A stretch of DNA of 64,000 bases, from contig DASQNO010000118.1 of assembly GCA_035644935.1 (NCBI GenBank), positions 12,153 through 76,152 of the forward strand. Direction: 5' to 3'. The notes below the pieces were generated by a model, which saw nothing but the letters and a program-made list of their open reading frames with translations, searched no databases and had not been told where the DNA came from. This stretch comes from Sphingomonadaceae bacterium (GTDB lineage: Bacteria > Pseudomonadota > Alphaproteobacteria > Sphingomonadales > Sphingomonadaceae). Both the position numbers and the translations under genes were made by a program. Positions 1 to 15,891 of the stretch are shown here, piece by piece (the stretch's first letter is position 1; every line of letters begins with the position of its first letter).

Positions 1-1008
1 CGCCTCGCCACAGCAGGTTCGGAGGCGACCGCCAAGGGCCTGATCGGCTTTGAACTGTTCAACAAGTCCGACATGGGGCTCACCGACTTCGCGCAGAAGA
101 TCAACTACCAGCGCGCGCTGCAGGGCGAGCTGGCGCGGACCATCATGGCTATGGACGGGATTGACGGCGCGCGCGTGCACCTGGCCATCCCCGACCGGTC
201 GCTGTTCCGCGGCGTCAGGAGCGAACCCAAAGCGGCCGTGACGCTGACGTTCGAGCCGGGCAAGGCCGTCGACGAGCGCCGCGTCGCGGGCATCCAGCGC
301 CTGGTCGCCGCCGCCGTCGCCGAACTTCCCTTGGCCAACGTCACCGTGCTCGACGACGTCGGACGCATCATCAGCCAGTCGGCCGAATTCGAGGCGCCCG
401 TCGCGCCGGAAATGGCCGAGCGCACGGCGGTTCAGCAATACTACCGGGCACGGGTGCGCTCGGCGGTCGAACAGGTCATGCCGGGCCTCAAGTTCGAGGT
501 ACGCGTGCTCATCCTAGCCGCGGCTGGCGAGCCCGACATGGGCGCGTGGGACGTACCCGTGCGGGGCGACGCGGCGGCAGACGCAGCCGCCGCGCCTCGG
601 GAGCGCGACTTCGGCCTTCGTATTCTGTTCGTCACGCCGTCGGGGCTCAATGCCGAGGAACAGGGCATCATCGAAAACGCCGCCGCCCAAGCGGTGGCGC
701 TCAGGCGCAGCGCCGGCGACAGCTTTGCCTTCGCGGTCGAGCCAGTCGGCAGCCGTCTGCCCGCGCCGGTCCTGCCCGCCGTGACCGTCGCGCCCGATGC
801 GCTCGTCGTCCCCGCTCCGGACCCCACCGCGGCGGTGAAGCGGCTGGCGGAGTCGAACAACTGGCTCTTCAGCATCGCCGCGCTGGTCGCGATCGCGGCG
901 ATCTTGATCTGGCTGCGCCGCCGGGCGCCGCGTCTCTCGTCTGAGCAGCGCGACGCTTACGTCCGCCGCATTCGCCTGCAGCTGGAAGGCGGCGATGCTC
1001 GCGCCTGA
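1..1008 (+). CDS. fliF: Flagellar MS-ring protein FliF-like (YscJ/FliF family), 5' end cut by window edge
   Basis: Frame 1 is open from nt 1. FELF..NYQRALQGELARTI..ARVHLAIPDRSLF matches the FliF ring-building signature. C-terminal TM helix WLFSIAALVAIAAILIWL is followed by only 30 aa. 14-nt overlap with the next ORF. Confidence 0.8.
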   Translation, partial: RLATAGSEATAKGLIGFELFNKSDMGLTDFAQKINYQRALQGELARTIMAMDGIDGARVHLAIPDRSLFRGVRSEPKAAVTLTFEPGKAVDERRVAGIQRLVAAAVAELPLANVTVLDDVGRIISQSAEFEAPVAPEMAERTAVQQYYRARVRSAVEQVMPGLKFEVRVLILAAAGEPDMGAWDVPVRGDAAADAAAAPRERDFGLRILFVTPSGLNAEEQGIIENAAAQAVALRRSAGDSFAFAVEPVGSRLPAPVLPAVTVAPDALVVPAPDPTAAVKRLAESNNWLFSIAALVAIAAILIWLRRRAPRLSSEQRDAYVRRIRLQLEGGDARA

Positions 1009-1420
1009 CGCCTCGATCGGACCCGCCGCCGCCGACCTCGCCGCCGACCTTCGCGCGCTTGCCGTTAATCAGCGGCGACAGGTGCTTGCCTCATTGTCGC
1101 CGGCCGAGCAGGCGCGCGTTTCCGCGCTGCTGGAGCCCGTCGCAACGCCTGCGCCGGGTACCCTCGACGCGACGCCCGCCACGCGTCCTGCGTTCGCGCG
1201 CTACTCGCCCTGGCTCGCGCGGCAGCTGCAGGAGCTGCAATCGGGATCGACCGGACTGGAAGCCGGCTGGACCATGACTCCCGCGGCGCGGCGCCTGCTG
1301 CTGCAGATCGCGGCGGAAGAGGCGCGGGACGACGTGCCCCCCGCCGACCAGGCCGCTACCGGCAGCCCATCGCTGCTCGGTGCGCTCGGCGGATTGTTGG
1401 CGCGAAGGGCGAGGGTGTGA
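995..1420 (+). CDS. Hypothetical 141-aa protein in the position normally held by fliG (flagella) or sctK (injectisomes)
   Basis: ATG overlaps the fliF stop and the stop overlaps the fliH-like GTG (GTGA), so it is translationally coupled within the operon. Ala/Leu/Arg-rich. It is less than half the ~330-aa length of FliG and I recognise no FliG motif. Confidence 0.5.
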   Translation: MLAPDASIGPAAADLAADLRALAVNQRRQVLASLSPAEQARVSALLEPVATPAPGTLDATPATRPAFARYSPWLARQLQELQSGSTGLEAGWTMTPAARRLLLQIAAEEARDDVPPADQAATGSPSLLGALGGLLARRARV

Positions 1421-2088
1421 CAGCACTGATCAAAGCGCACGCGGGGCACGCCGTTCGCCGTTTCGCCGAGGGCGCGTCGATCGCGCGCGCGGTGGCCGCG
1501 TCGTCATCCCCGGCCGAAAGCGCGGAAGCGGTGCAGATGGCCGTGCTCACCCAGGAACTCGCCGAGTTGCGTCGCACGATCGCCGCGGACCGGGAGGCCG
1601 CCGCCCGCGCCGCCGCCAAGGCGCGCGAGGAGGGGCGACGCGAGGGCCGTGAACAGGCCCGGCGCGATGACGAAGCGCGGATCGCGGCACTTGGCGAAGG
1701 CCTGTCCGGCGCGCGCGCCGCGTGGGACGAACGGATCGGCGAGCTCGACGGCCTGGCAACGCTGGTGGCGCGCGCCGCGATCGCCAGGATGTTCGATGCC
1801 TGCGCCAACCACGCTGACTTCGTCGCAGGCATGGTCGCGCGGCAGCTGCGGCATCTCCGCCACGAAACGGTTCTCTTAATCCGTGTCAGCCCGGAAAATT
1901 TCACCGACGACGCGGCGCTGGCGGGGCTTGGCGCCGGCGCCATCGCCGTCGAACGCGACGATACGCTGAGCGGCGGGCAGTGCCGCATCGATCTGCAGCT
2001 CGGCCATCTCGACCTCTGCTCGCGCGCCCACTGGGCCGAGATGTCGGCGCTGCTTCACCAACTCTCCGAAGCGGAGGCCGCGGCGTGA
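1417..2088 (+). CDS. fliH: FliH/SctL-like export ATPase regulator
   Basis: Sits directly upstream of fliI. Has an Ala/Glu/Arg-rich coiled-coil centre and a C-terminal GGQCRIDLQLGHLDL block typical of the FliH/YscL family. GTGA overlaps on both sides. Confidence 0.7.
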   Translation: MTALIKAHAGHAVRRFAEGASIARAVAASSSPAESAEAVQMAVLTQELAELRRTIAADREAAARAAAKAREEGRREGREQARRDDEARIAALGEGLSGARAAWDERIGELDGLATLVARAAIARMFDACANHADFVAGMVARQLRHLRHETVLLIRVSPENFTDDAALAGLGAGAIAVERDDTLSGGQCRIDLQLGHLDLCSRAHWAEMSALLHQLSEAEAAA

Positions 2089-3428
2089 CCGCGCACCCGT
2101 TCCTCGCTGAAATCGCCCGCGCCGAGTTCGTCCGCCCGCACGGCTATGTCCGCCGCGTCGCCGCAGGCCTCGTCGAGGCGTCCGGTCCCGCGGGCGCGCT
2201 TGGCGACCTCTGCGACGTCCAATGCGAACGGCCCGACGGCGCTGCCGGCACGGTGCTCGCCGAAGTTGCGGCCGTGGACGAACGCCGCGTCGTGCTCGTG
2301 CCGCTCGAACAGCACGTCACCATCCGCCCCGATGCGCGCGTTTCCGCCCGTCCCCTGCGCGACCGCGTGCCCGTCGGGGAGGCATTCGCGGGCCGCGCGG
2401 TCGACCCGCTCGGCCGCCCGATTGACGGCGGACCCCCAATCCACGTGACGGGCTCCGCGGCGCTGATGGGCTCGGTTCCCCGGCCCATGGAGCGGGCCGA
2501 TCCCTCCCGTGTGCTGACGACCGGCATCCGCGCCATCGATGGAGTGCTGACGCTGGCGGAGGGCCAGCGCGTCGGCATCTTCGCGGCCAGCGGCGTCGGC
2601 AAGACCAGCCTGACCGAGCAGCTCGCGACGCAGATCCGCAGCGACCGCACGATCCTCTGCCTCGTCGGCGAGCGCGGGCGCGAGGTCGAGGCGCTGTGGC
2701 GCATGCTGAGCACGCGCGAGGACGCGGCGCGGTACACCGTGGTGGCGGCGACGTCCGACGAAAGCGCCGCGCTGCGCGCCCGCTCCGTCAGCTACGCGCT
2801 GTGCCTGGCCGATTACTGGCGCGCGCGCGGCGAGCATGTCCTGCTGATGGTCGACTCGATCACGCGCATGGCGATGGCCTTGCGCGAGATCGGGCTCGCC
2901 GCTGGCGCGCCGCCGACGGTGCGCGCCTACACGCCCAACGTCTTCGCCGCCTTGCCGCGGCTGGTGGAACGCTGCGGCGCGACGAAAGAGGGCGGGGCGA
3001 TCACTGCCATCATGACTGTGCTCAGCGAGACCGACGACGTCGACGATCCCATCGTCGAGTTGATGAAATCACTGCTCGACGGCCACATCGTGCTGTCCCG
3101 CGCGCTCGCCGAACAGGGTCACTTTCCCGCCATCGACGTCGCGCGCAGCGTCAGCCGTGGCGCCGACCGGTTGGTCCAGCCGGATCAGGCTAAGGCGATG
3201 CGCGAGGCGGTGTCGCTGCTCGGCGCGTACGAAGAGGCGCGGGTGATGATCGAAAGCGGCGTCTACAAGGCGGGCACCAACCCGCAGGTCGACCGCGCGA
3301 TCGCGGCGCGGCCCGGGATCAACGCCTTCTTGCGCCAGGACCGGACGGACGATGTCCGCATGGAGGAAACACTGCGCAACCTGCGCGCGGTGACCGCCGC
3401 GAGCGCGAGGGCGCCGGTTCATGCGTGA
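2085..3428 (+). CDS. fliI: Flagellum-specific/T3SS ATPase FliI
   Basis: Walker A SGVGKTSL, Walker B LLMVDSITR, and conserved HFPAIDV near the C-terminus. GTG at 2085 overlaps the fliH stop; the longer track ORF starting at 1980 lies inside fliH. Confidence 0.92.
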   Translation: MTAHPFLAEIARAEFVRPHGYVRRVAAGLVEASGPAGALGDLCDVQCERPDGAAGTVLAEVAAVDERRVVLVPLEQHVTIRPDARVSARPLRDRVPVGEAFAGRAVDPLGRPIDGGPPIHVTGSAALMGSVPRPMERADPSRVLTTGIRAIDGVLTLAEGQRVGIFAASGVGKTSLTEQLATQIRSDRTILCLVGERGREVEALWRMLSTREDAARYTVVAATSDESAALRARSVSYALCLADYWRARGEHVLLMVDSITRMAMALREIGLAAGAPPTVRAYTPNVFAALPRLVERCGATKEGGAITAIMTVLSETDDVDDPIVELMKSLLDGHIVLSRALAEQGHFPAIDVARSVSRGADRLVQPDQAKAMREAVSLLGAYEEARVMIESGVYKAGTNPQVDRAIAARPGINAFLRQDRTDDVRMEETLRNLRAVTAASARAPVHA

Positions 3429-3870
3429 CCGCGACCGCCTCGCCACAATGACCCGGCTGGCCGCCGTGCAACGCGCCAAGCGCGTCGGCGCGGAAGCCGC
3501 CCTGGGCGAGGCCCGCCGGGTTGAGGCGGAGGCGGAGACCGCCCAGGCGGACGCGCAGGCCCGCCTTGTCGACGCTCACGAACAGTGGCTGGGTCACATG
3601 GAAGCGGGCCGGTTCTCGCCCGAACTAGCGGGGCTGCTGTCGAACGCGGTGGTGGGCCGCGCCGGCGAGCTCGACCAGGCCGAGGCGCAGACCGCCACCG
3701 CCGCCGACGCGCGCGCCCGCAGCCAGTCCGAATGGCAGGTCCTGGAGGCCCGCGTGCGCGCCGGCGAGGACGGACTGCGTGACTTGCGCCGCAAGGTCGC
3801 GCGGCGGCGCGAGGAAAGCCGCGTCGCCGAACGCGCCGACCGCACAACCCTTGCATGGAGCCGGACATGA
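3421..3870 (+). CDS. fliJ: FliJ/SctO-like coiled-coil stalk protein
   Basis: 149-aa Ala/Glu/Arg/Gln-rich coiled-coil protein immediately after fliI, with an 8-nt overlap. Assigned by position and composition. Confidence 0.6.
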   Translation: MRDRDRLATMTRLAAVQRAKRVGAEAALGEARRVEAEAETAQADAQARLVDAHEQWLGHMEAGRFSPELAGLLSNAVVGRAGELDQAEAQTATAADARARSQSEWQVLEARVRAGEDGLRDLRRKVARRREESRVAERADRTTLAWSRT

Positions 3871-4730
3871 GCCTGCCCCCCGTTCACGCGCGTCCTTCGC
3901 CGCCGGCGGAACCCAGCGGTGTCAAGGGGCGACCCGGGCAGGAGGACGCATCGGCCGGGTCCGGCACTCCGTTCGACATCCTGCTGGCCGAGCGCGGCGG
4001 CGCGGCGCCGCTGCCGCTTGCGGGGCAGGACCTCGACGCAGACAGGCGGCAGGGCAGGGCCGTGCCGACTGTTGCGGAGGTGTTCAACGAACACGGCTTC
4101 TTCGCGGGCGCCGCGCCGCTCGGTTCACAATCGCCGGGCGCGCCGGCATCGCCGCAGGCCGGCGGCGTGAGTGTCGAGCCCGCGTTCGCGCACCCGGCTT
4201 CGGCAGCGCCGCGCGGCGGTGCGATGGCCTTGCCCGCCGGAGGAGCCGCGCCCGTCATCGCGGAAGCCCGTTTGGCCATGGCCGACGCTGCGCTGTCGGA
4301 GGGTGCCGTCAGGCTGGACGGCTTCGGCGGCCCCTTCCTCGCGCGCTTCGCCGGATCTCCGACCGGCGCGCCGGCTGTACCAAGAGCAGCGATGCAATCC
4401 GCCCCGCGCATCGCAGCGAGCATCGCGCGCGCGGCTTCGACCGGAGCCAGCTCGCCTTCCACGGCCGATGGATCGACTTTCGCCTCGCGCGCGGGCAAGC
4501 GCCTCGCCGCCAGGGTGGAGGAGCATCTCCGCCGCGCGGGCGGCACCGCCATCCGCGTCGATGTTCGCGCCAGCCAAGACGGGCTGCTGGTCGCAGCGCG
4601 CGCCGAGGGGCTCGACCGCGCGGAGCGCAGCCGCCTCCGGGCGGAGATCGAAGCCCTGCTCGTCCGGCACGGCCATGCGCCCGCCCGCATCAGCCTGAAC
4701 GGCGAACCCGCGCCGCCACGCCGGGCGTGA
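3867..4730 (+). CDS. FliK-like hook-length control protein (weak)
   Basis: ATG 3867 forms an ATGA overlap with the fliJ stop. Pro/Ala-rich N-terminal part and a C-terminal IRVDVRASQDGLLVAARAEG..LRAEIEALLVRHG block resembling the FliK C-terminal domain. Located before flgD-flgE. Confidence 0.5.
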   Translation: MSLPPVHARPSPPAEPSGVKGRPGQEDASAGSGTPFDILLAERGGAAPLPLAGQDLDADRRQGRAVPTVAEVFNEHGFFAGAAPLGSQSPGAPASPQAGGVSVEPAFAHPASAAPRGGAMALPAGGAAPVIAEARLAMADAALSEGAVRLDGFGGPFLARFAGSPTGAPAVPRAAMQSAPRIAASIARAASTGASSPSTADGSTFASRAGKRLAARVEEHLRRAGGTAIRVDVRASQDGLLVAARAEGLDRAERSRLRAEIEALLVRHGHAPARISLNGEPAPPRRA

Positions 4731-4743
4731 AGAGGAACATGGC

Positions 4744-5208
4744 ATGCAGGTAAGCCCCTTCCCGACGACGCCGAGCCGCCCGGTCACGACGCCCGGCCAG
4801 GCGCCAGGCGCCGCGCCTCCGGCGCAGGACCCGGCGACCAGCGCCTTCGGCCTGAGCTTCGAGTCCCTGCTCAAGATCATCCTGACGCAGCTGACCTACC
4901 AGGACCCGCTGAAGCCGATGGACAATTTCGAGTTCGTCTCGCAGCTCGCGCAGTTCTCGCAGATCCAGATCGGCCAGACGACCAACGACAAATTGTCCGC
5001 CGTCGCCACCGCGCAATCCAACCTGCAGGCCGCCGGCCTGCTCGGGCGTCAGGTCGATATCCCCGCCGGCGCCGCCACGATCAGCGGCAAGGTGGTCTCC
5101 ATCGCTTTTCAGGCGGGCGAACCGCGGCTGACCGTCGAGACGGCCGACAAGCAGACGATCAGCAACATCTCCATCGCCAGCATTTCGCAGATCCGGGAAG
5201 GAAAATAG
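4744..5208 (+). CDS. flgD: Hook capping/assembly protein FlgD
   Basis: QDPLKPMDNFEFVSQLAQFSQIQ is the conserved FlgD N-terminal signature. Directly precedes flgE. Confidence 0.85.
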   Translation: MQVSPFPTTPSRPVTTPGQAPGAAPPAQDPATSAFGLSFESLLKIILTQLTYQDPLKPMDNFEFVSQLAQFSQIQIGQTTNDKLSAVATAQSNLQAAGLLGRQVDIPAGAATISGKVVSIAFQAGEPRLTVETADKQTISNISIASISQIREGK

Positions 5209-5212
5209 GAAC

Positions 5213-6391
5213 ATGTTCGGTTCGATCTACGTGGGCCTCAGCGGCCTCAACGCCTATTCCAAGGGGCTGCAGCAGGTCAGCAGCAACATCACCAACCTGA
5301 ACTCGTCGGGGTTCAAGGCGTCCACCGTCACCTTCACCGACCAGTTCAGCGTCCGCAGCAACAACCTGGCCAACGCCAACAGCCGCGAGACCACCGGCCG
5401 CGGCGTAGACACGGGCCGCACGCAGCTCGACTACAAGCAGGGCGAACTGCGCCAGACCAACCGCGACCTCGATCTGGCCGTCGACGGCAACGGCTTTCTG
5501 ATGCTGACGCGGGGCGAGGAGGTCGCCTACACGCGCACCGGCAGTTTCGAGGTCGACAAGGACGGGTTCATCGTGCTCGCCGGCACCGACTACCGGCTGG
5601 CGACGATCGATGGTTCGGGCCGCGCGGTCAGCCTCTCGATCGACGCCTCGCGCACCAGCCCGCCCAAGCCGACGACGACGATCAAGTTCGCCGACAACCT
5701 CTCCTCCACCGCGACGACCCACGCGCTGGGCGACATCAAGGTGATCGACAAACAAGGCGGCGAGCATGTCTGGCAGGTGCAGTTCGCCAAAAAGGCCGAC
5801 GGCGCGCCCGACGAATGGACCGTCACCGTCACCGACGCCAAGGCGAAGGTCGTCGGCGCCCAGACGCTGAAGTTCAACGGCGGCATCGTCGATCCCGCCA
5901 CCGCCAAGCTCGTCTTCGCGGACGAGGAGAACGGCACGTCGGTAATGCTGGACCTGTCGGAGAACGTCACCTCCTTCTCCTCGGGCCAGGTGTCGACGCT
6001 ACGCACCGCGTCCGTGGACGGCTACAAATCGGGCACGATCACGTCGGTCGGCGTCAACGACAAGGGGGCGCTGGAGATCGGCTATTCCAACGAGCAGAAG
6101 AAGGACCTGGGCGCCGTAGCCATCGCCGACTTCCGCGACCCGCAGGCGCTGGAACAGCGCAGCGGCGGCTTGTTCGCCGACACCGGCCGCGCGGGGCGGC
6201 AGGTCGCGGGCAGCGAGGACGTCCGCGTCGGCCGCGTCCTGTCGCGCCGTCTGGAGGCCTCCAACGTCGACCTCGCCAAGCAGTTCGGCGATCTGATCTT
6301 GATCCAGCGCGGCTTTCAGGCGTCCTCGCAGATCATCAGCGTGTCCAATGACATGATCCAGCAGCTGTTCGGCATCCGGGGCCAGGGCTGA
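5213..6391 (+). CDS. flgE: Flagellar hook protein FlgE
   Basis: N-terminus MFGSIYVGLSGLNAY..NITNLNSSGFK and C-terminus EASNVDLAKQFGDLILIQRGFQASSQII match the conserved axial-protein termini. Confidence 0.9.
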   Translation: MFGSIYVGLSGLNAYSKGLQQVSSNITNLNSSGFKASTVTFTDQFSVRSNNLANANSRETTGRGVDTGRTQLDYKQGELRQTNRDLDLAVDGNGFLMLTRGEEVAYTRTGSFEVDKDGFIVLAGTDYRLATIDGSGRAVSLSIDASRTSPPKPTTTIKFADNLSSTATTHALGDIKVIDKQGGEHVWQVQFAKKADGAPDEWTVTVTDAKAKVVGAQTLKFNGGIVDPATAKLVFADEENGTSVMLDLSENVTSFSSGQVSTLRTASVDGYKSGTITSVGVNDKGALEIGYSNEQKKDLGAVAIADFRDPQALEQRSGGLFADTGRAGRQVAGSEDVRVGRVLSRRLEASNVDLAKQFGDLILIQRGFQASSQIISVSNDMIQQLFGIRGQG

Positions 6392-6420: not shown

Positions 6421-7209
6421 GTGGGTGAAGCATGCACGGCCTGGCTGCCGGCCAAGGCGTTCGCCGACGGCGTCGCCGCGCGGCGGCTGGCGGCGGCGGT
6501 GGAGGCGTGGGCGGAGCGCTGGTTCGCGGACCGGCGGGTCGCGCCGCTCGCGGATCCGGCCGCCGCGCGGGCGGCGGTCTGGCGCGCCGAGGCGGCGCAG
6601 GTCCAAAGCTTGGACGACGGCCTGGCGGTGGCGGTCGGCGACGCGGGGCGCCTCGCCATCGCGGGCGCGATGCTGGATGCCGCGATCGATGTCCGCAAGG
6701 CGCGGCCGGCGGACCGCCAGCTTTTCGATCGCCTGTCCGACGCCTGCCTCGACGACCTTCGCACGCGCATGGCGCAGGCCTTCAAGCTGGCGCCCGACGC
6801 GCGCTGGCGTGCCGGCGATAGCGTCGATGACTTGCCGCCTGCGGACGCCCACGCCTTTGGGTTCGACGACGCGGACGAGCCCTTGCTGCTGCTGTTCGTC
6901 ACGCGCGACCTGGAGGTGGCGCTGATCAAGTCGGGCTTGCGCGCGCCGCCTTCGCCGCCCGCGCTGGCGCCGCTCGCCACCGGCTTGGCCGCGCAGACGG
7001 TCGATCTGTCCGCGCTGCTCGGCCGCTGCGACCTCACCGTCGCCGAACTTGCCGAACTCACCTGCGGCGATGTCCTCGTCCTCGACCGCGACCTCGACGC
7101 CCCGCTCGATCTCGCGATCGACGGCCGGCTCAAGTCCGGCCGCTGCTCGGTCGCGCCCGATGGCGACCGGCTCCACCTCACAATCGTCCAAACACCGACC
7201 GGAAATTAG
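6421..7209 (+). CDS. SpoA-domain switch/sorting-platform protein (short FliM/SctQ-like)
   Basis: C-terminal CDLTVAELAELTCGDVLVLDRDLDAPLDLAIDGRLKSGRC resembles the FliM/FliN/YscQ SpoA domain. Only 262 aa, with no recognisable N-terminal CheY-binding LSQxEIDALL-type peptide. Confidence 0.6.
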   Translation: MGEACTAWLPAKAFADGVAARRLAAAVEAWAERWFADRRVAPLADPAAARAAVWRAEAAQVQSLDDGLAVAVGDAGRLAIAGAMLDAAIDVRKARPADRQLFDRLSDACLDDLRTRMAQAFKLAPDARWRAGDSVDDLPPADAHAFGFDDADEPLLLLFVTRDLEVALIKSGLRAPPSPPALAPLATGLAAQTVDLSALLGRCDLTVAELAELTCGDVLVLDRDLDAPLDLAIDGRLKSGRCSVAPDGDRLHLTIVQTPTGN

Positions 7210-7211
7210 CC

Positions 7212-7550
7212 ATGCTGACCGAGACCAAAGCCAACGGCGCCGCCGCTCCCTCAGCCGGCCCAGCCGCCGCACTGCAGCCCGACCCGCCGACGGCTAAGAA
7301 GGCGAGCCCGCCGGGCCGCATCGACGCCCGGCTGATCGACAATGTAGGCGTGACGCTGGAGGCGTATCTCGGCGGCGCGCGCATGACCGTGGCGGAGTTG
7401 ACCGACCTCAAGGCGGATTCTGTCGTGCCGTTGGTCGCCGCGCTCAACCAGGCGGTCGAACTGCGCCTCAACGGCGTCCCCGTCGCGCGCGGGGAGCTTG
7501 TCGCGGTGGGCGACAAGTTCGGCGTCAGGCTGGTCGAGATGGCCGGATGA
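7212..7550 (+). CDS. fliN: Flagellar motor switch protein FliN
   Basis: VTLEAYLGGARMTVAELTDLKADSVVPL...ELRLNGVPVARGELVAVGDKFGVRLVEM is a typical FliN SpoA domain. Confidence 0.85.
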   Translation: MLTETKANGAAAPSAGPAAALQPDPPTAKKASPPGRIDARLIDNVGVTLEAYLGGARMTVAELTDLKADSVVPLVAALNQAVELRLNGVPVARGELVAVGDKFGVRLVEMAG

Positions 7551-8634: not shown

Positions 8635-9377
8635 CGCGCGCGGCCGCATCCGGGCTGGCGCTGCTGGTGCGTCCCTGCCGGGTCGAGGCTTCGCTGTGGC
8701 GCCGGTTCCGGCTGGAGGCGGTGGGCGAATGCCGCGGCGTGCTGTTCGACCGCTATCTGGGTCTCGCCCGCGCCATTGCCGCCTGCCACTATCACCGGCG
8801 ATTCGGGCACGGCATCGAACGCGGCGACTTCGAACAGTTCGCGTTCGAAGGGCTGCTGCAGGCGATCGACCGGTTCGACCCGCTGCAGGGCGTGCCGTTC
8901 GGCGCCTATGCCCGCCGCCGTATCGCGGGCAGCGTCGCGGACGGCATCTCCAAGATGACGGAGGTCGGCACGCAGATCAGCCACCGCCACCGCACCGAAC
9001 AGGAACGCCTGCGCTCGCTGGCGCGCGCAGGCGCGGACATCACCGACGAGGACGCCATCGCCGCGCTGTCCGACCTCGCGCTGGGCCTGGCGCTCGGCCT
9101 GATGCTCGAGGGGACCAGCCTGATGGAGCCGGCCGACGGCCTCGACACGCGTCCGACCGCCTACGAGACGCTGGAATGGCGGCAGATGCAGGCGGGGCTG
9201 GCGCGGGAGGTCGCGCGGCTTCCCGACGCCGAAGCCGTGGTCATTCGCCAGCATTACAACAACGGTTTAAGCTTCGCGCAGGTCGCCGAACTGCTGGGCC
9301 TCAGCCGCGGCCGCGTGTCGCAACTTCACCGCGCCGGGCTCGACCGGCTGCGCAAGAAGATGGGCGCGTTCAATTGA
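8631..9377 (+). CDS. fliA: Sigma-70 family sigma factor, FliA (sigma-28)-like
   Basis: Region 2 FEGLLQAIDRFDPLQGVPFGAYARRRIAGSVADGI and region 4 HTH LSFAQVAELLGLSRGRVSQLHRAGLDRLRK. GTG 8631 gives a GTGA overlap with the fliP stop. Confidence 0.8.
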   Translation: MTRAAASGLALLVRPCRVEASLWRRFRLEAVGECRGVLFDRYLGLARAIAACHYHRRFGHGIERGDFEQFAFEGLLQAIDRFDPLQGVPFGAYARRRIAGSVADGISKMTEVGTQISHRHRTEQERLRSLARAGADITDEDAIAALSDLALGLALGLMLEGTSLMEPADGLDTRPTAYETLEWRQMQAGLAREVARLPDAEAVVIRQHYNNGLSFAQVAELLGLSRGRVSQLHRAGLDRLRKKMGAFN

Positions 9378-9390
9378 AGAAGGATCACCG

Positions 9391-9957
9391 ATGACCACCC
9401 TGTGCAGCGACGACGAACTGCAGGAGCTGATGGCCGCGATGCAGGCGGACAGCGCCGACGAACTCGAGCGCGCCGACCGCCTTGTCGCGATCTACCCGGA
9501 GGATGCGCGGCTGCATTTTCTGCGTGGTTCGATCCTCGCCAATATCGGCCGCCCGATCGAGGCGCTGCCCGCGCTCAAGCGGTCCGTCGAGCTCGCGCCC
9601 GATTTTTCGCTGGCGCGGTTTCAGACCGGCTTCTTCCAGCTGACTTCGGGCGAGGCGGCGGATGCGCTGGGCACCTGGGGGCCGCTGGCGATGCTGCCGG
9701 CCGACAATTACCTGCGCATGTTCGTCGCGGGGCTGACCCACCTGATCCGCGACGAGTTCGCCGAGGCGGTCGCGCAGCTCGAAGCCGGCATCGCGGCCAA
9801 CGAGGAGAACCCGCCGCTCAACCGCGACATGCAGCTGATCATCGATCAGACGACCGAGCTGATGGCGGGCGCGCCGGCCGTGTTGCCCGAGGAAACCGGG
9901 AGCGCATCGGCCACCAGCTTCCTGCTGGGCCAGTTCGATCGCGGGCGGCCCAACTGA
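9391..9957 (+). CDS. TPR-repeat protein (188 aa)
   Basis: TPR-like helix pairs (ARLHFLRGSILANIGRPIEALPALKRSVELAPDFSLARFQTGFFQL). Weak Shine-Dalgarno-like purine-rich motif (GAAGGA) upstream of the ATG. Immediately follows the sigma factor. Confidence 0.6.
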   Translation: MTTLCSDDELQELMAAMQADSADELERADRLVAIYPEDARLHFLRGSILANIGRPIEALPALKRSVELAPDFSLARFQTGFFQLTSGEAADALGTWGPLAMLPADNYLRMFVAGLTHLIRDEFAEAVAQLEAGIAANEENPPLNRDMQLIIDQTTELMAGAPAVLPEETGSASATSFLLGQFDRGRPN

Positions 9958-9980
9958 CCCGCGTCACGTCTTCCGATCAT

Positions 9981-10277
9981 GTGCTGCTGCTGCTGCGCGA
10001 GCAGTTGCAGCGGCTCGACCGGGCGGGCGCCAAGCGGACGGCCCCGGGCGCCAAGCCGACGGCGGCGCCGATGGCGCGGCTGCGGGCGTTGGGGGATGTC
10101 CCGGACAAGGAATTCAAGCGGACGCTGGTGCGCGCGCTGCTGGCCGAGCGGATGGGAGAAGGGGTGGCCAACGACCCCGCGTTCCAGGCGGTGATCGACG
10201 ATGTTTACCGCATCATCGACGAAAGCGACGACGGACGGGCGCTGATTCACCGCGCCGCGACGCGTTTGCGGGGGTGA
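9981..10277 (+). CDS. Hypothetical small protein (about 98 aa; start uncertain)
   Basis: Open frame after the TPR gene, ending inside a terminator hairpin. GTG 9981 is the first plausible start. No family recognised. Confidence 0.35.
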   Translation: MLLLLREQLQRLDRAGAKRTAPGAKPTAAPMARLRALGDVPDKEFKRTLVRALLAERMGEGVANDPAFQAVIDDVYRIIDESDDGRALIHRAATRLRG

Positions 10278-10455: not shown

Positions 10456-11586
10456 TCAAGCCATCCCTAGCTTGGCGAGCGCCTGCGCAATCGTGCGACC
10501 GCTGTCGTCCACCGGCGTGTTGATCGCCAGCGCGTAGATGCGCTGCGCGCCCGCCTCGTCGCCGGCGCCTGCCGCCAGCATCGATTTGGCGAGCGCCGCC
10601 GAATAGCATTGCCGGTCGAGGCGGAGCGCGACGTCGCTGCGCTGCCGGGCGCTGTCCGCGTCGCCCTCCAGCAGGTCGAGCACCGCCAGCGATCCGTGCG
10701 ATTCGGCGAAGTTCGGGTCGATGCGCAGCGCGGTTTCGAAGCGGGCGCGGCTCGCCGGGAGATCGCGGGCGACGAAATGCGCCCAGCCGGCGGCGATCCA
10801 GGAGCCCAGGTGATCGCCGAACAGCTCCGCGCCCCGGTCGATGTCGCCGGCTGCGGTGTCCGCCTGGCCGGTGAGCAGCTTGGCGAGGCCGCGGCCGACC
10901 CAGGCGCGCGGCGCCTGCGCATTGGCGTCCAGCACGCGGTCGAAGATCGCCAGCGCTTCGGTGGCGCGCTCCTCGCCTAAAGCCAGCGTGCCCAGCGTCG
11001 CCAGCGCGTCCGGGTGATCGCCCGCCGCTGCCGCGCATCGCGCCGCCAGTTCCTCGTCGCCGACGTCGATCGCCAGCACGGACACCGCCGCCATCAGCGG
11101 CGCGTAGTCCGGGTGCAGCTCCACATACTCACGCGCCAGCGCCGCCGCCTGCTCGAACTCGCCATGCTGGTGAAGGATCTGCACGCGCAGCATTGCCGCC
11201 GCCGGCAGCGCGCGCGCGACGTCGTCCTCCAGCAGCGACAGGGCGCCGTGAAGGTCCTTCTTCATCGCCCACGCCCAGGCGAGGTTGAACCGCAGCGCGT
11301 GATCGTCGTCGCCGCCCAGCAGCAGGCGTTCGAAGAAGGCGGCCGCCACGTCGTATTGCCCCTGCCGCATCGCGGCGAGCCCGGCGAGGTTGGTCTCGCG
11401 CGGCGGCAGCGGGGCGAGGGCGGCGTAGCGTTCGAGCACGGCCGCCGCCGTGTCCGCGTCGCCCGCGTCCACCGCGGCCTCCGCCGCGTCGGCGAGTAGC
11501 GGCAGGTTGGCGGGGTCGCTTTCGAGGTACGACAGGAGCCGTTGCAGCCGGCTCGTTTCGACGGTGTCCACGAGATCATCCTTCAT
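10456..11586 (-). CDS. TPR-repeat protein (376 aa)
   Basis: Multiple TPR-like repeats along the whole length. ATG at 11586 (MKDDLVDT...); the upstream part of the track ORF runs through a palindromic repeat. Lies downstream of flhA on the same strand. Confidence 0.7.
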   Translation of the reverse strand: MKDDLVDTVETSRLQRLLSYLESDPANLPLLADAAEAAVDAGDADTAAAVLERYAALAPLPPRETNLAGLAAMRQGQYDVAAAFFERLLLGGDDDHALRFNLAWAWAMKKDLHGALSLLEDDVARALPAAAMLRVQILHQHGEFEQAAALAREYVELHPDYAPLMAAVSVLAIDVGDEELAARCAAAAGDHPDALATLGTLALGEERATEALAIFDRVLDANAQAPRAWVGRGLAKLLTGQADTAAGDIDRGAELFGDHLGSWIAAGWAHFVARDLPASRARFETALRIDPNFAESHGSLAVLDLLEGDADSARQRSDVALRLDRQCYSAALAKSMLAAGAGDEAGAQRIYALAINTPVDDSGRTIAQALAKLGMA

Positions 11587-11617
11587 CGGTAACAACCTCA
11601 ATCGCGTGGCTTGCCGC

Positions 11618-11685
11618 GTACCCCGACGAAGGCCGGGGTCCAGCATCGTGGCCACGGATCTGGACCCCGGCCTTTGCCGGGGAAC
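11618..11685. repeat. Palindromic REP/MITE-like element, family A
   Basis: GTACCCCGACGAAGGCCGGGGTCCAG ... CTGGACCCCGGCCTTTGCCGGGGAAC. Same architecture as the copies at 21748, 22161 and 22281. Confidence 0.8.
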
Positions 11686-11714
11686 TAGCGGAAATTCGGC
11701 CCATGCACCCCACC

Positions 11715-13745
11715 CTACGCCTCCAGCTTGACGACATCGAAAGACTTGAGATTGATCCGCATCGGGATCTCGTTGACCGATAGCACCGACAATCGCGGGA
11801 TGCTGCGCTTGGTGAACGCCTTCAACTGACGCCGCACCTCCGCCCCGCACAGCAGCACGGGCGAGCGACCCTCCCGGTGCATGTCCTCCGACATCGCCGA
11901 CAGCTTGCGGATCAATTGCTCGGCCAGTTTCGGCTCGACCAGCAGCGTGCCGCGCGGGCCCGCCTGCCCGGCGTTGGTGGTGATCTGGTTCTCGATCCGG
12001 GGATCGAGGCTCAGCACCGCCAGGTCGTTGTGCTTGCCGCGAAGCTGGTGGCAGATCGAATGGCTGATGCGCTGGCGCACCAGTTCGGTGAGCTCCCCCG
12101 TCTCCTTTTGCGTGCGGGCGAGGTCGGTCAGATGCTCCAGGATCAGGTCGACATTGGCGATGGACACGCCTTCGCCCAGCAGGTTCTGCAGCACGCGCTG
12201 GACGTCGGAGATGGTCAGGCTGTTGGGGATCAGCTCTTCAAGCAATCCCGGCTGGCGTTCGCGGACGTCCTCCATCATCTTCACGACAACCGATCGCGTC
12301 ACCAAAGTCGCCATCTCGCTCTGCACGATCTCCCCGAAATGCGTGATCAGCACGGTGACGGGGTCGATGACCTTGAGCCCCGCCGCGCGCGCTTCCGCCG
12401 CCGCTTCGGGCAGGATCCACAAGGCGGGGAGCCCAAAGGCGGGATCCTCGGTCGCGATGCCGTCCAGCTTGACCGTCTCGTCTCCCGACCGGATCGCCAG
12501 CACCCGGTCCGGATGGATTTCGGCCAGCGCGAAGCGCGACCCGAACAGGCGGATCTCGTATTGGAGCGTCCCCAGCCCCGCGCCGTCCCCCATGCGCACC
12601 GCCGGGAAGCCCAGCCCGTAGTCGCCCTCGAAGACGCGACGCAGGCCCGCAATGCGATCGGTGACGATCGCCTCCTCCGCTTTCCAGGCCTGGCTCAGCT
12701 CGCTTCCCAGCCGGATCTCGAGCGCGGGGGCGGGACCCGCGCCCGCCAGCTCGTCGGCCGCCGCCTCCACCTCGCGCGCGGCCTCCGCAATCGCCGGCGC
12801 GGCCTTGCGCGCCTTGTACCAGGCGAGCAGCGCCAGCGCGATGATGATGGCGATCGGCCATTTGGGCATGCCGGGCAGCAGCAGCAGCGCCAGCAGGATC
12901 GCCGCGACGATCAGCGGGATGCGCGGCACCGACGCCAGCTGGCGGAACACCTCGGTGCTGAGCTCCCGGTCCGCTGACGAGCGCGTGACGATGATGCCGG
13001 TGGCGATGGCGATGATGAGCGCGGGCAGCTGCGTCGCGATGCCGTCGCCGATGGTCAGCAGCGTGAACCGCTCCAGCGCCACGTCCCACGCCATGTCCAT
13101 CTGAACGACGCCGATGATCCACCCGCCGATGATGTTGATCAGGAGGATCAGGATGCCGGCGATGGCGTCGCCCTTCACGAACTTGCTGGCGCCGTCCATC
13201 GACCCGTAGAACGAGGCCTCTTTCTCCAGCTCCTCGCGCCGCTGCACCGCCTGCTTCTGGTCGATCAGACCCATGTTGAGGTCGGCGTCGATGCTCATCT
13301 GCTGGCCGGGCATCGAATCCAGCATGAAGCGCGCCGCGACTTCCGACACGCGCTGCGCGCCCGCGGTTACGACGACGTACTGCACCACCACGAGGATCAG
13401 GAACACGACCAAACCGATAACGAAATTGCCCTGCACGGCGAACGTGCCGATGGAGCCGATCACTTCGCCGGCATCAGCGCCGGTCAGGATCAGGCGGGTG
13501 GCGGCGACGTTGAGCGACAGGCGGAAGAGCGTGGCGAGCAGCAGCAGCGAGGGAAAGGTCGAGAACTCCACCGGCTTGCCGACGTAAAAGGTCAGCAACA
13601 GGATCGTCAGCGCGAAGCCGAAATTGATGAGGATGGCGAGGTCCAGCACCGCCGGCGGGATCGGCGAGAACAGGATGGTGAGGATCAGCACCATGCCGAT
13701 CACCAGCGCCAGGTCCTTGTTATTGCGGAGCGTCTTGCCGAGCAT
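11715..13745 (-). CDS. flhA: Export-gate protein FlhA
   Basis: FPSLLLLATLFRLSLNVAATRLIL and the downstream conserved TM and cytoplasmic blocks. ATG at 13745 (MLGKTLRNNKDLAL). Confidence 0.95.
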   Translation of the reverse strand: MLGKTLRNNKDLALVIGMVLILTILFSPIPPAVLDLAILINFGFALTILLLTFYVGKPVEFSTFPSLLLLATLFRLSLNVAATRLILTGADAGEVIGSIGTFAVQGNFVIGLVVFLILVVVQYVVVTAGAQRVSEVAARFMLDSMPGQQMSIDADLNMGLIDQKQAVQRREELEKEASFYGSMDGASKFVKGDAIAGILILLINIIGGWIIGVVQMDMAWDVALERFTLLTIGDGIATQLPALIIAIATGIIVTRSSADRELSTEVFRQLASVPRIPLIVAAILLALLLLPGMPKWPIAIIIALALLAWYKARKAAPAIAEAAREVEAAADELAGAGPAPALEIRLGSELSQAWKAEEAIVTDRIAGLRRVFEGDYGLGFPAVRMGDGAGLGTLQYEIRLFGSRFALAEIHPDRVLAIRSGDETVKLDGIATEDPAFGLPALWILPEAAAEARAAGLKVIDPVTVLITHFGEIVQSEMATLVTRSVVVKMMEDVRERQPGLLEELIPNSLTISDVQRVLQNLLGEGVSIANVDLILEHLTDLARTQKETGELTELVRQRISHSICHQLRGKHNDLAVLSLDPRIENQITTNAGQAGPRGTLLVEPKLAEQLIRKLSAMSEDMHREGRSPVLLCGAEVRRQLKAFTKRSIPRLSVLSVNEIPMRINLKSFDVVKLEA

Positions 13746-14856
13746 CGTTGTTACCTGAGGTGGCCGCTCGCGCGGCGTTGTCGGTGGTCGCCGCGCGGGC
13801 GGCGTGGAGCTTGAAATAAAGGTCGGCGACGCCGCCATATTCGTTCGCGCCGATCTCGCGGCCGGTCTCGCCGCGCTCGTACAGGGCGCGCGCCAGCGGG
13901 CGGTTCTCGAAGATCGGGATGCCGAGGCGGAAGGCCTGGCGCTTCATCGCCAGCGCGTTGTGGTTGCGGGCCTTGGCGGTGACGGTGGGCGCCGCCATCG
14001 TCGCCGCGTCGTAGCCCAGCGCCACCGCGACATGCTGCGGATTAACGATCAGCATGTCGGAGCCGGGGAGCTTGCCCAGGTCCTTGGACTGCTGAACGAA
14101 TTCGGCGTGCAGCTGCTTTCGCTTCTGCCGCATCCTGGGCTCGCCTTCCCTGTCCTTGGACTCGCGCGTCAGCTCGCTGCGGCTCATGCGCATCTGCTTG
14201 CTGTATTCGCGGCGCACCATGATCTGGTCGATGCCGGCGAAGAACAGGGCCAGCAGGATGAACAGCATCAGCAGGCGGGTGCCGACGCCCCGCATCGCGT
14301 CGGCAAGGCCGGCGGCGCCGTCGCCGTAGAAGCCCGGCGTCGTCATCACCGACTTGACCACCAGGAACGTCACGGTGGCGTAGGCGGCGAACTTGACGAC
14401 GTTCTTCAGCGCCTCCTTGAGCATGCGCACCGAGAACAGCCGCTTGAGGCCCTTGGCCGGGTTGATCTTGGAGAAATCGGGCTTCAGCGGATGTGTGGTG
14501 AAGATCAGCCCGCGCAGCTGCACCACCTCGAACAGCAAAGCGATCGCGACCACCGTTCCGCCCAGCAGCAGGATGGGCTGCAGCGCCGGCCAGTACACGG
14601 CGGCCATCGTGGCGGTGGCGTGCTGCGGATCGGTGGCGCCTTCGATCCCCGCGCCCAGCGAGCGCCGCATCAGCAGCGCCAGCGTTTGCGCGACGCCTTC
14701 GCCGGCCACCGTCAGAAACGCCGCCAGCGCGAGCAGCACGCCGAAAAAGCCCAGGTCCATGCCGCGCGCGACCTGGCCCTTCTCCCGCGCGCGCTTGAGC
14801 TTAAAGGGGGTCGCCTCCTCGCTCTTGTTCTGTTCGCCGCCGCCGCCGTCGGACAT
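13720..14856 (-). CDS. flhB: Export switch protein FlhB
   Basis: N-terminus EQNKSEEATPFKLKRAREKGQVARG. The autocleavage loop reads NPQH (canonical NPTH) in LIVNPQHVAVALGY. ATGA overlap with the fliR stop. Confidence 0.9.
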   Translation of the reverse strand: MSDGGGGEQNKSEEATPFKLKRAREKGQVARGMDLGFFGVLLALAAFLTVAGEGVAQTLALLMRRSLGAGIEGATDPQHATATMAAVYWPALQPILLLGGTVVAIALLFEVVQLRGLIFTTHPLKPDFSKINPAKGLKRLFSVRMLKEALKNVVKFAAYATVTFLVVKSVMTTPGFYGDGAAGLADAMRGVGTRLLMLFILLALFFAGIDQIMVRREYSKQMRMSRSELTRESKDREGEPRMRQKRKQLHAEFVQQSKDLGKLPGSDMLIVNPQHVAVALGYDAATMAAPTVTAKARNHNALAMKRQAFRLGIPIFENRPLARALYERGETGREIGANEYGGVADLYFKLHAARAATTDNAARAATSGNNDARQDAPQ

Positions 14857-15611
14857 CAGATAAGCGCGATCGCGGTTTCGAGCGCGTAGCGGATCATGCG
14901 CAGGAACAGGGCGCCCGACAGCGTAATCGCGATCGGCAGCACGATCAGCATCGCCAGCGCCTTGACCTGAAAGCCCAGCAGCAGGACGTTCATCTGCGGC
15001 ATCGTCCGGCTCATCAGCGAGATCGCGATGTCCAGCGTGAAGAGCACCAGCATCAGCAGCCCGCCGGCGCCGAACGCCATCACGAATACCGCCGACATGT
15101 AGCCGGTGAGCGCGCCGAGGTCGCCGCCGATCCCCGCCGACCCCAGCGGCACCTGGTCGACCGACGCCGCCCAGATCGCCAGCATGTCGGCCGGGCCGTC
15201 CGTGGCGAAGAAGATCGCCGCCGCCGCGTAGGCGAACAGGGTGCCCGCCAGCGGCACCTGCGCCCGCGTCGTGGGGTCGAGCAGCATCGACAGGCCGAAC
15301 CCCGCCTGGATGTCGATCGCCCGCCCCACCGTCTGCAGCGCGGCGAACGCCAGCTGGAGGGCCAGCGACAGCCCGACGCCGAGCAGCAGCTCGCCCAAGG
15401 CCGTGACGAACAGGCCCGGCGCCCAGAAATCGGCGCGCCACGTCTGGTTCGGGTGGCCCGACACCAGCCACGCCGCCAGGCTGACGCTCAGCATCACGCG
15501 CACCAGAGCGGGGACGCGCAGCAGCGTGAACGGCGGCGAGAAGGCGAACGCGGGCGCGATGCGCAGGCTGACCAGCAGCGTCGCCACGAACTGATTGCTA
15601 TAGTCTTCCAA
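14856..15611 (-). CDS. fliR: Export-gate protein FliR
   Basis: Polytopic membrane protein starting LLVSLRIAPAFAFSPPF, typical of FliR/SctT. Lies between fliQ and flhB. Confidence 0.9.
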   Translation of the reverse strand: MEDYSNQFVATLLVSLRIAPAFAFSPPFTLLRVPALVRVMLSVSLAAWLVSGHPNQTWRADFWAPGLFVTALGELLLGVGLSLALQLAFAALQTVGRAIDIQAGFGLSMLLDPTTRAQVPLAGTLFAYAAAAIFFATDGPADMLAIWAASVDQVPLGSAGIGGDLGALTGYMSAVFVMAFGAGGLLMLVLFTLDIAISLMSRTMPQMNVLLLGFQVKALAMLIVLPIAITLSGALFLRMIRYALETAIALI

Positions 15612-15621
15612 GGCCGGCCGC

Positions 15622-15891
15622 TTATCCGCCCAGCGTCGGGATGATCAGGTAGAGCGAGGTCGCGAAATTGGTCATGCGGCCCATCATCCACGGCCCGATC
15701 GCGATCAGCAGAAAGGCCGCCGTCAGGATCTTGGGGACATAGGTCAGCGTCATTTCCTGAAGCTGCGTCGTCACCTGGAACACACTGATCATCAGGCCGA
15801 CGAGCAGCGTCGCGATCAGGATGGGACCGCCGACGATCAGGCTCTGCCACAGCATGTCGTTCAGGAAATTGAGCGCGCGATCGGTTCCCAC
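15622..15891 (-). CDS. fliQ: Export-gate protein FliQ
   Basis: LLVGLMISVFQVTTQLQEMTLTYVPKILTAAFLLIAIGPWM is the FliQ/SctS signature. GTG 15891 gives the usual ~89 aa. Confidence 0.85.
   Translation of the reverse strand: MGTDRALNFLNDMLWQSLIVGGPILIATLLVGLMISVFQVTTQLQEMTLTYVPKILTAAFLLIAIGPWMMGRMTNFATSLYLIIPTLGG

Follow-up and report, generated by a model that had tools for sequence, protein, structure and literature searches.

The 64,000-nucleotide (nt) stretch of DNA analysed here (the window) comes from a Sphingomonadaceae bacterium (assembly GCA_035644935.1, contig DASQNO010000118.1, positions 12,153 to 76,152) and carries, at its positions 1-15891, a flagellar-type gene cluster organised as two convergent operons, one on the plus strand running from fliF to orf98 and one on the minus strand running from fliQ to a gene for a tetratricopeptide repeat (TPR) protein, TPR376. 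Together with genes that lie just upstream, the cluster forms a module that encodes an export gate, an ATPase complex, a short membrane-supramembrane (MS) ring, a rod, outer (L/P) rings, a hook and two SpoA proteins, as well as its own FliA-like sigma factor, two TPR proteins and the small protein orf98. The link between this module and genes for giant Rhs toxins, which was not part of an earlier reading of the same DNA from its letters alone (hereafter the original prediction), is its most informative feature. The genes are listed below by window coordinates and strand; protein families were called with Pfam and NCBIfam profiles, and scores were compared with the NCBI family cut-offs.

1-1008, plus strand: fliF, the C-terminal 335 codons of a 424-amino-acid (aa) MS-ring protein (PF01514 YscJ_FliF)
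995-1420, plus strand: orf141, a small helical protein encoded where a flagellum has fliG and an injectisome has sctK; no Pfam family
1417-2088, plus strand: fliH-like gene (ATPase stator/regulator), between orf141 and fliI; weak match to TIGR03825 FliH (E = 8.5e-6)
2085-3428, plus strand: fliI, the type III secretion system (T3SS) ATPase (PF00006, PF18269)
3421-3870, plus strand: fliJ-like coiled-coil protein, named by position alone; no hidden Markov model (HMM) match
3867-4730, plus strand: fliK-position protein, Pro/Ala-rich with a conserved C-terminal block, named by position; an open reading frame (ORF) is conserved there
4744-5208, plus strand: flgD, hook cap (PF03963, E = 2.3e-15)
5213-6391, plus strand: flgE, hook protein (Flg_bb_rod, D1 domain, FlgE_D2 (weak) and Flg_bbr_C; TIGR03506, 232 bits)
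6421-7209, plus strand: SpoA262 (262 aa) at the fliM position, a C-terminal SpoA domain (PF01052, residues 193-245) behind a novel 185-aa N-terminal part
7212-7550, plus strand: fliN, SpoA protein (PF01052, E = 2e-18)
7547-7924, plus strand: fliO, with one transmembrane segment (weak PF04347 and TIGR03500 matches)
7921-8634, plus strand: fliP (PF00813, E = 2e-69; TIGR01103, 240 bits, above the cut-off)
8631-9377, plus strand: FliA/WhiG-family sigma factor (TIGR02479, 92.8 bits with a cut-off of 189.6; Sigma70_r2 and r4)
9391-9957, plus strand: TPR188, a highly conserved TPR protein (TPR Pfam matches)
9954-10277, plus strand: orf98, a small conserved protein encoded behind the sigma factor and TPR188; no Pfam, NCBIfam or PDB match
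10456-11586, minus strand: TPR376, last gene of the minus-strand operon (TPR Pfam matches)
11715-13838, minus strand: flhA (FHIPEP, E = 1e-220); start uncertain, with an alternative Met at 13745
13720-14856, minus strand: flhB (PF01312)
14856-15611, minus strand: fliR (PF01311, E = 4e-40)
15622-15891, minus strand: fliQ (PF01313, E = 2e-24)
15957-17252, next to fliQ: gene for an NTP_transf_5 nucleotidyltransferase

The gene coordinates and the two-operon layout given in the original prediction were borne out, apart from the start of TPR376, which is most likely 11586 (376 aa; relatives have about 375 aa) and not 11850, the extent of flhB (14856-13720) and the start of orf98. The latter is probably a TTG at 9954, which yields a protein of 107 aa and overlaps the stop codon of TPR188; the window reads LTRVTSSDHVLLLL from 9954, and relatives of orf98 begin with MTRIxxxDQVLLLLR. 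Exactly eight of the plus-strand junctions overlap (by -14, -4, -4, -8, -4, -4, -4 and -4 nt), the number originally counted. Most of the gene names proposed at that time are supported by Pfam or NCBIfam; the exceptions are fliH and fliO, for which the matches are weak, fliJ and the fliK-like gene, which are positional assignments, and orf141, which belongs to no family. A relative of the fliH-like gene has a weak match to PF02108, and a 149-aa ORF is conserved at the fliJ position in relatives. The protein at the fliK position is presumably a hook-length ruler; its identification as FliK by similarity failed, with no Pfam, NCBIfam or PDB match and an hhalign probability of 0.1% against E. coli FliK.

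The cluster can be followed beyond the edge of the window because orf141 is encoded identically on an 84.9 kb metagenome contig of the Joint Genome Institute (JGI), referred to here as L001, which extends the window upstream; the NCBI record of the identical protein derives from a Sphingomonadaceae metagenome-assembled genome (MAG). The sphingomonad origin assumed in the original prediction holds. Directly upstream of the window on L001, in the same orientation, lie flgF-G-A-H-I, a divergent flgB, flgC, fliE and the start of fliF, the last at L001:8740, 267 nt upstream of the window. The original prediction had listed rod, L/P-ring and motor genes among those not seen, which is correct for the 16 kb concerned; for the rod, L/P-ring and fliE genes this absence is an artefact of the window edge, as they lie immediately upstream. 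Extension of the contig had also been put forward as the check that could overturn the idea of a reduced system: fliE, flgBC, flgFG and flgAHI are indeed found there, but fliG, motAB and flagellin are not. Beyond flgF, no further flagellar genes were found on L001, and the contig instead ends in a giant Rhs toxin gene and its immunity gene.

L001:3-2528, upstream of flgF: giant toxin gene (more than 1,885 codons in all), 3' part (LysM, WHH/Colicin-DNase)
L001:2530-2976, directly upstream on the window side: SUKH immunity gene, following the toxin gene

A second metagenome yielded a near-identical contig (L002, JGI 3300041964, 13.4 kb) on which flgF, flgG, flgA and flgC are split or frameshifted and the toxin gene is truncated; the frameshifts are probably errors of assembly or sequencing rather than signs of decay.

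The window and its upstream extension leave the rotary and filament parts of a flagellum unaccounted for. We scanned the larger ORFs of the 64 kb window that have a coding-type G+C content by codon position (the scan omitted 25.0-27.9 kb and several short ORFs), and among these no flagellar genes were found outside the cluster; the remainder encode unrelated housekeeping and metabolic proteins. No match to MotA or MotB occurs among the ORFs scanned in the window and the 9 kb upstream of it. The sole OmpA/MotB-like peptidoglycan-binding domain in the window belongs to an OmpA-family protein with glycine-zipper motifs (51327-52403), which is not a stator candidate, as it is encoded far from the cluster and has no adjoining MotA gene. 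No FliG Pfam match occurs in the cluster, and none of fliG, motAB, flgKL, fliD, fliS or flagellin was found in the cluster, on L001 or in more than 80 syntenic loci, including two plasmid copies that are described below.

The proteins that would have to hold a rotor are themselves altered. FliF (424 aa) matches PF01514 only, has no match to YscJ_FliF_C and covers positions 22-255 of the 555 of profile TIGR00206; its predicted transmembrane segments (residues 20-38 and 376-394) leave a cytoplasmic tail of 30 aa. The best 120 FliF homologues are 400-437 aa long and likewise match PF01514 only, with the exception of one partial entry of 274 aa. The distance from fliF to fliH was measurable in 66 loci; at 210-505 nt, it never leaves enough room for a FliG of 330 aa. 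This place always holds a small ORF of about 130 aa, here orf141, whose family has 153 representatives; of the 150 listed, all but one are 70-151 aa long, the sole long member (419 aa) matches in seven short stretches, and none is near the length of FliG. We could not identify orf141 as a truncated FliG, as there is no detectable homology (hhalign probability of 0.1% against E. coli FliG) and the AlphaFold2 model of the protein (mean predicted local distance difference test score, pLDDT, 75.6) had no fold match in the PDB by Foldseek. The original prediction had named a FliG-like score of orf141 as part of an outcome that would count against it, and no such score was obtained. Weak matches to MgtE_N, a family of the FliG clan, were seen in 24 of 80 family members and hint at a FliG-clan helical motif. 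At the fliM position, a profile search of PDB sequences with SpoA262 matched the SpoA domain alone, and a comparison with E. coli FliM by hhalign gave a weak result (E = 0.005, 6.8% probability); SpoA262 could not be identified as FliM, and a FliM middle domain is not recognisable in it. Presumably orf141 and SpoA262 take the places of FliG and FliM and form a static platform on the cytoplasmic side.

The export machinery and the axial structures, on the other hand, are represented. All components of the export gate and ATPase (FlhA, FlhB, FliP, FliQ, FliR and FliI) are present with strong Pfam matches, and the rod, L/P rings and hook (FlgBCFG, FliE, FlgHI and FlgDE) are all found, either in the window or immediately upstream of it on L001. 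These flagellar structures are present in place of the corresponding injectisome parts; no Pfam or NCBIfam match to the secretin SctC, to SctD, to the needle protein SctF or to translocators was found in the window and upstream L001. Comparison with family-specific models places the core proteins at some distance from both types of system. For FliI, the score is 439 bits with FliI_clade1 (cut-off 619), 432 bits with SctN (cut-off 605), and 305 and 274 bits with the solved structures of FliI and EscN, respectively. The best model for FlhB is SctU, at 266 bits versus 250 bits for FlhB (cut-off 349), both scores being under the cut-off, and FliN scores 59.8 bits against fliN (cut-off 84) and 59.6 bits against SctQ. 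FlhA reaches 704 bits against FlhA (cut-off 772) and 547 bits against SctV. FlhA and FliP are clearly nearer to flagellar models, while FliI, FlhB and FliN score about equally on injectisome models. Just two of the core proteins that were compared, FliP and FlgI, attain the cut-off of a specific family. The autocleavage motif of FlhB is present as the variant NPQH at residue 272; an NPxH motif occurs in 47 of 51 FlhB relatives, most of which have NPEH and one the canonical NPTH, with Asn, Pro and His retained.

A search with FlgE through GTDB, in which each species was represented by one genome, returned 167 relatives, the best 80 of which are almost all from Sphingomonadales and include cultured members of Sphingomonas, Novosphingobium, Sphingopyxis, Croceicoccus, Qipengyuania and Erythrobacter. 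The module is present in the complete genomes of Sphingomonas sp. So64.6b (CP048817), Sphingomonas sp. CJ20 (CP177172) and Qipengyuania sp. DGS5-3 (NZ_CP170454) and in MAG OY970297. Loci fetched from these 167 relatives (L003-L088), nearly all of them from Sphingomonadales, were mapped by tblastn; the short contigs among them hold part of the gene order. The common order is flgF-G-A-H-I-B-C, fliE-F, a small ORF, fliH-I-J-K, flgD-E, spoA, fliN-O-P, sigma factor, TPR protein and orf98, followed by a TPR-flhA-flhB-fliR-fliQ unit that is usually convergent. This unit is unlinked or on the same strand (inverted) in about 20 loci, and in six loci flgH-flgI have the reverse orientation. Intact collinear ORFs were found in every one of the more than 80 fetched loci, with 30-87% identity within Sphingomonadales. 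Two plasmids, the conjugative pMSMB2035 (Burkholderia ubonensis) and pUYM01 (Undibacterium sp. YM2), carry the same order; their proteins share 24-61% identity with those of the window, and according to the plasmid annotations fliG, motAB and flagellin are missing there as well. In pUYM01 (L092), fliH has been relocated to a place behind the sigma gene, on the other strand. The module also occurs in a Pirellula-labelled MAG and two Hyphomonadaceae MAGs (L042, L049 and L081), with 55-60% FlgE identity, which could be due to mis-binning or to horizontal transfer. The conserved unit is a module of about 25 kb plus a toxin gene, and the 16 kb originally noticed are its larger part.

The original prediction had suggested that this is a reduced flagellar-type system that was possibly acquired horizontally. 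The divergence of its proteins and the related copies on plasmids, one of them conjugative, accord with this suggestion. Recent horizontal transfer is not supported by base composition: the window has about 70% G+C with no break at the cluster, and the ranges in the cluster (0.67-0.73) and elsewhere (0.66-0.75) overlap, leaving no compositional sign of such an event.

When the unassigned flanking ORFs of all loci were clustered, a giant Rhs-repeat gene of 1,900-4,900 aa was found to adjoin the module in about 35 loci. In 21 of these, rhs starts 15-250 nt beyond fliQ; it follows orf98 directly in L030 and L088, lies 1.3-2.2 kb from orf98 in four Erythrobacter-type loci, and is located upstream of flgF in L001, L083, L085 and L087. 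The genes upstream of flgF include those of an Allosphingosinicella MAG (3,290 aa), Sphingomonas sp. So64.6b (4,118 aa, with RHS, TEN_YD-shell and LysM matches) and Sphingomonas sp. CJ20 (3,426 aa), and the Burkholderia plasmid copy is directly followed by a gene for a 4,897-aa RHS protein with 19 RHS stretches. RHS_repeat and TEN_YD-shell matches characterise the giant neighbour genes, and the fragment on L001 aligns with them. The position in which 21 relatives start rhs is occupied in the window by the NTP_transf_5 gene (15957-17252), and rhs here lies on the other side of the module, which indicates that the toxin gene moved around the cluster during evolution.

The C-termini of these proteins vary, and so do the genes that follow them. 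The L001 toxin ends with LysM, then a hydrophobic stretch of about 200 residues that is rich in glycine and alanine and resembles a glycine zipper, then a linker, and finally a nuclease of the WHH/Colicin-DNase type; the SUKH immunity gene comes next. The Sphingomonas sp. CJ20 toxin ends with GH-E and is followed by ankyrin and Imm33 genes. Differing C-termini that are each accompanied by a matching immunity gene are a hallmark of polymorphic toxins. At the other end, a glycine-rich leader of 45 residues, MVAI(F/V)TGxGxGxERGS...G(R/Q)xG...(V/L)NAAxGNL, is conserved from Sphingomonas to Burkholderia, i.e. from alpha- to betaproteobacteria, and is followed by DUF6531. The N-termini of complete relatives have no hydrophobic signal peptide, and no PAAR domain is on record for them. 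A protein search with the leader returned short fragments. No type VI secretion system (T6SS) genes were seen in the flanks of the module that we examined. In the literature that we searched, we found no description of an Rhs-linked flagellar-type system, and the coupling of such a module to Rhs polymorphic toxins appears to be undescribed.

The rhs genes also share a motif in their upstream DNA. The motif CTAAAC-N15/16-(C/G)CGA(T/C) lies 60-110 nt upstream of the rhs start and occurs in about 20 relatives overall. Sites upstream of rhs account for about 17 of the 22 motif matches in 1.64 Mb, where only a few would be expected by chance, as estimated by scaling from shuffles of the window. The motif is also found in So64.6b (L085), L088 and the Burkholderia plasmid, where it reads CTAAAC-N15-CGGATAA. 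The consensus of sigma-28 promoters is TAAA-N15-GCCGATAA. Judged from its letters, the motif upstream of rhs has the architecture of a sigma-28 promoter, putatively one that is read by the module's own sigma factor, and rhs is the gene in these loci that consistently carries such a motif.

The small genes that follow the sigma factor may be part of the same circuit. TPR188 has a mean column identity of 62% over 30 loci; its assignment to the class II T3SS chaperones could not be upheld, since the PDB and NCBIfam searches returned generic TPR matches only, and it may be an export chaperone (perhaps of Rhs) or a co-regulator. Nor could orf98 be identified as FlgM, as it matched nothing in Pfam, NCBIfam or the PDB; from its position and size one could speculate that it is a FlgM-like regulator with an anti-sigma role, or else a substrate. 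TPR376 has a weak NCBIfam match to the injectisome chaperone SctY (31 bits, cut-off 70, E = 2e-7), which may be TPR noise or a real link to chaperones that bind FlhA/SctV.

Taking together what is observed of the module (its gene content, conservation and synteny, the promoter motif and leader of the neighbouring rhs genes, and the toxin/immunity pairs), we infer that the machine does not rotate and that it exports the Rhs proteins. In the absence of FliG, MotAB, the hook-filament junction proteins, the cap and flagellin, the hook-basal body would be unable to rotate and would bear no filament; rhs, which in relatives has a sigma-28-type promoter and a leader that is no signal peptide, stands in the regulatory place that flagellin holds in a flagellum. 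Our preferred reading is therefore a non-rotating, flagellum-derived hook-basal-body T3SS that exports Rhs toxins, to which we assign a probability of roughly 55%. The original prediction had offered a secretion or appendage system that retains a hook as one of its two alternatives, and the evidence now favours a flagellum-derived secretion apparatus that keeps its hook. More tentatively, and at slightly under even odds, the module would be an uncharacterised branch of the T3SS superfamily, an independent conversion of a flagellum in which flagellin has been replaced by giant Rhs toxins and which is self-contained, mobile and shared by Alpha- and Betaproteobacteria.

In the mechanism that we propose, the basal body and hook would assemble, and after completion of the hook a FlhB/FliK-type switch would turn export to late substrates. 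The module's sigma factor would drive rhs, and the Rhs protein, directed by its 45-residue leader, would leave the cell unfolded through the open hook and attack microbial competitors. As is the case in flgK and flgL mutants, a hook without junction proteins releases late substrates into the medium, and a machine of this kind would thus plausibly secrete. Use of flagellar export for such purposes has been described: in the flagellin-less Lysobacter enzymogenes, the flagellar T3SS is needed for secretion of toxic proteins (PMC7688988), and in Pectobacterium the bacteriocin carocin is reported to be exported through the flagellar T3SS (PMC8672553).

Several observations weigh against this interpretation. 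We found no precedent for export of Rhs proteins of 2,000-4,900 aa through a T3SS channel. Neither the window nor L001 has a match to the promoter motif, and the rhs leader too is seen in relatives only; the motif is missing here because the 5' end of rhs lies off the contig. A canonical FliA could also read a sigma-28-type rhs promoter. The 841 C-terminal residues of the toxin that are available on L001 contain no DPxG[LWIV] autoprotease motif, which may be divergent. About 25 loci have no rhs within the 560-960 nt beyond fliQ, and in Sphingomonas sp. ERG5 the place of rhs upstream of flgF (L086:524-4471) is taken by IS66 and IS3-type transposase genes, which suggests that the toxin locus was broken up or displaced by these insertion sequence (IS) elements. 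No RHS protein is encoded by the three large genes scanned next to the pUYM01 module, one of which has a PLD-like domain, so that the cargo may differ between lineages. Finally, many Sphingomonas strains carry flagellin-containing clusters elsewhere in the genome (PMC13037860, PMC9751261), which makes the supply of missing parts in trans the main rival to export of Rhs toxins.

According to this rival, the cluster is a second, reduced flagellar system for motility that obtains its missing parts from a canonical locus, and the Rhs gene is irrelevant to it. The hook-basal-body genes are all intact and translationally coupled, and both the FliA-like sigma factor and the NPxH switch motif of FlhB are kept; many Sphingomonas strains have one or two flagellin-containing clusters (PMC13037860), Sphingomonas sp. 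A1 has been reported to build one flagellum from two gene sets (PMC9751261), and a cluster of the same content in Xylophilus has been filed as a "candidate flagellar system" (PMC13436205). A foreign FliG, however, would have to dock on a FliF whose 30-aa tail has no recognisable C-terminal domain for it, and next to a SpoA262 without a recognisable FliM middle domain. The core proteins, moreover, stand at equal distances from canonical flagellar and from injectisome models, and mixed assemblies are for that reason improbable. The FliF tail, the divergent SpoA protein and the distance from canonical proteins thus argue against supply in trans, as does the finding that fliG, motAB, flgKL, fliD and flagellin are present in 0 of more than 80 loci, plasmid copies included, and that the consistent carrier of a sigma-28-type promoter is rhs. 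We consider this explanation unlikely.

It is a little more doubtful still that the apparatus, while flagellum-derived, serves other substrates, adhesion or sensing, and that Rhs is co-located and co-regulated with it but leaves the cell by another route. The copies that lack an adjacent Rhs gene are in keeping with this possibility, as is the very large size of Rhs proteins, those studied so far using T6SS or other routes (PMC3482391, PMC11762177); the Lysobacter flagellar T3SS, too, is needed for small enzymes and not for Rhs proteins. Against it, the complete Rhs proteins have no PAAR or other known trafficking domain on record, no T6SS gene was seen in any of the flanks examined, and the leader and promoter are conserved alongside the cluster in both Alpha- and Betaproteobacteria, a conjugative plasmid included. 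It is very improbable that the locus is a functionless remnant of an ancestral flagellum that is now decaying: it does lack many flagellar genes, and several of its proteins are too diverged for HMMs to recognise, but the ORFs remain intact and collinear, at 30-87% identity within Sphingomonadales, the overlaps of start and stop codons persist, the cluster is carried on a conjugative plasmid, and frameshifted copies are confined to the one low-quality metagenome contig L002.

A secretion apparatus of the kind that we favour would combine features of several known systems. In common with the bacterial flagellum, the module has an export gate with its ATPase complex, an MS ring, a rod and L/P rings; a hook with its cap, SpoA proteins, a sigma factor of the FliA type and the NPxH motif are shared as well. 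In Bacillus subtilis the fla/che operon has the order flgB-flgC-fliE-fliF-fliG-fliH-fliI-fliJ-fliK-flgD-flgE-fliM-fliY-fliO-fliP...sigD, and the genes of the module match it position by position. Unlike a flagellum, the module lacks FliG, MotAB, FliL, the FliM middle domain, FlgJ, FlgKL, FliD, FliS and flagellin, its FliF is about 130 residues shorter, most of its core proteins fall under the NCBIfam flagellar cut-offs, and the gene behind the "late" promoter in module loci encodes an Rhs toxin. Flagellin is present in the lateral-type cluster of Sphingomonas sp. A1 and Xanthomonas, which is a different system.

The injectisome is likewise a flagellum-related export machine without motor or filament, and is likewise accompanied by TPR proteins. 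In injectisome operons, sctK is placed between the MS-ring gene and the FliH/SctL gene, and the module has a small non-FliG gene in the same location; its FliI, FlhB and FliN also score about as well on Sct models. The module differs in that it keeps the rod, L/P rings and hook, in that no secretin, SctD, needle or translocator gene was found, and in the clearly closer relationship of FlhA and FliP to flagellar models.

A similar system has been described in Xylophilus strains ASV27 and KACC 21265, where a "third flagellar type" (FlhA3/FlhB3) comprises FlgABCDEFGHI, FlhAB and FliAEFHIJMNOPQR but lacks flagellin (Roux et al. 2026, PMC13436205). There, fliG, fliK and fliL are given as "missing", FlhA3 is sister to canonical flagellar FlhA, and the distribution is patchy; the paper assigns no function and does not mention Rhs (PMC13436205). 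The reported gene content is identical to that of the module, and on that likeness the two are probably homologous. The locus is a widespread, mobile, motor-less and filament-less derivative of the flagellum that the earlier literature mentions in passing only.

Lysobacter enzymogenes offers the parallel of an apparatus without functional flagellin that has been co-opted for secretion of toxic proteins against microbes, and Pectobacterium, with its reported carocin export, that of a flagellar export apparatus co-opted for an anti-microbe toxin. Both differ from the module in having otherwise canonical flagellar sets, and for neither has a dedicated Rhs cargo gene, a reduced cytoplasmic ring (C-ring) or a loss of FliG been described. 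The toxins themselves resemble those of other Rhs/YD-repeat systems (T6SS-linked Rhs, Tc toxins and WapA) in their RHS repeats, YD shell, variable nuclease C-terminus (WHH or GH-E) and adjoining cognate immunity gene (SUKH or Imm33). They differ in carrying a 45-residue glycine-rich leader instead of PAAR, a Sec signal or a TcB-type domain, in the LysM and glycine-zipper hydrophobic region before the toxin, and in their link to a flagellar-type T3SS rather than a T6SS.

The injectisome is the only well-established large-scale conversion of a flagellum into a secretion system, and its loss of motor and filament is inferred only from phylogeny. The module represents a natural intermediate-like state, in which the rod, L/P rings and hook have been kept, FliG, the stator and the filament have been lost, and the export proteins lie roughly between flagellar and injectisome profiles; cultivable carriers for its study exist in Sphingomonas Leaf and Root isolates, such as Root241, and in S. 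elodea ATCC 31461. If our reading is true, present-day bacteria would exemplify the stage without a motor through which the injectisome has been proposed to arise, and Rhs proteins would gain a new secretion route. For the genomes concerned, "flagellar" annotations of these genes carry no implication of motility. If the link to Rhs is functional, the 45-residue leader would mark, instead of PAAR, a new class of polymorphic-toxin trafficking, and the module would be a widespread weapon in soil, plant and marine sphingomonads.

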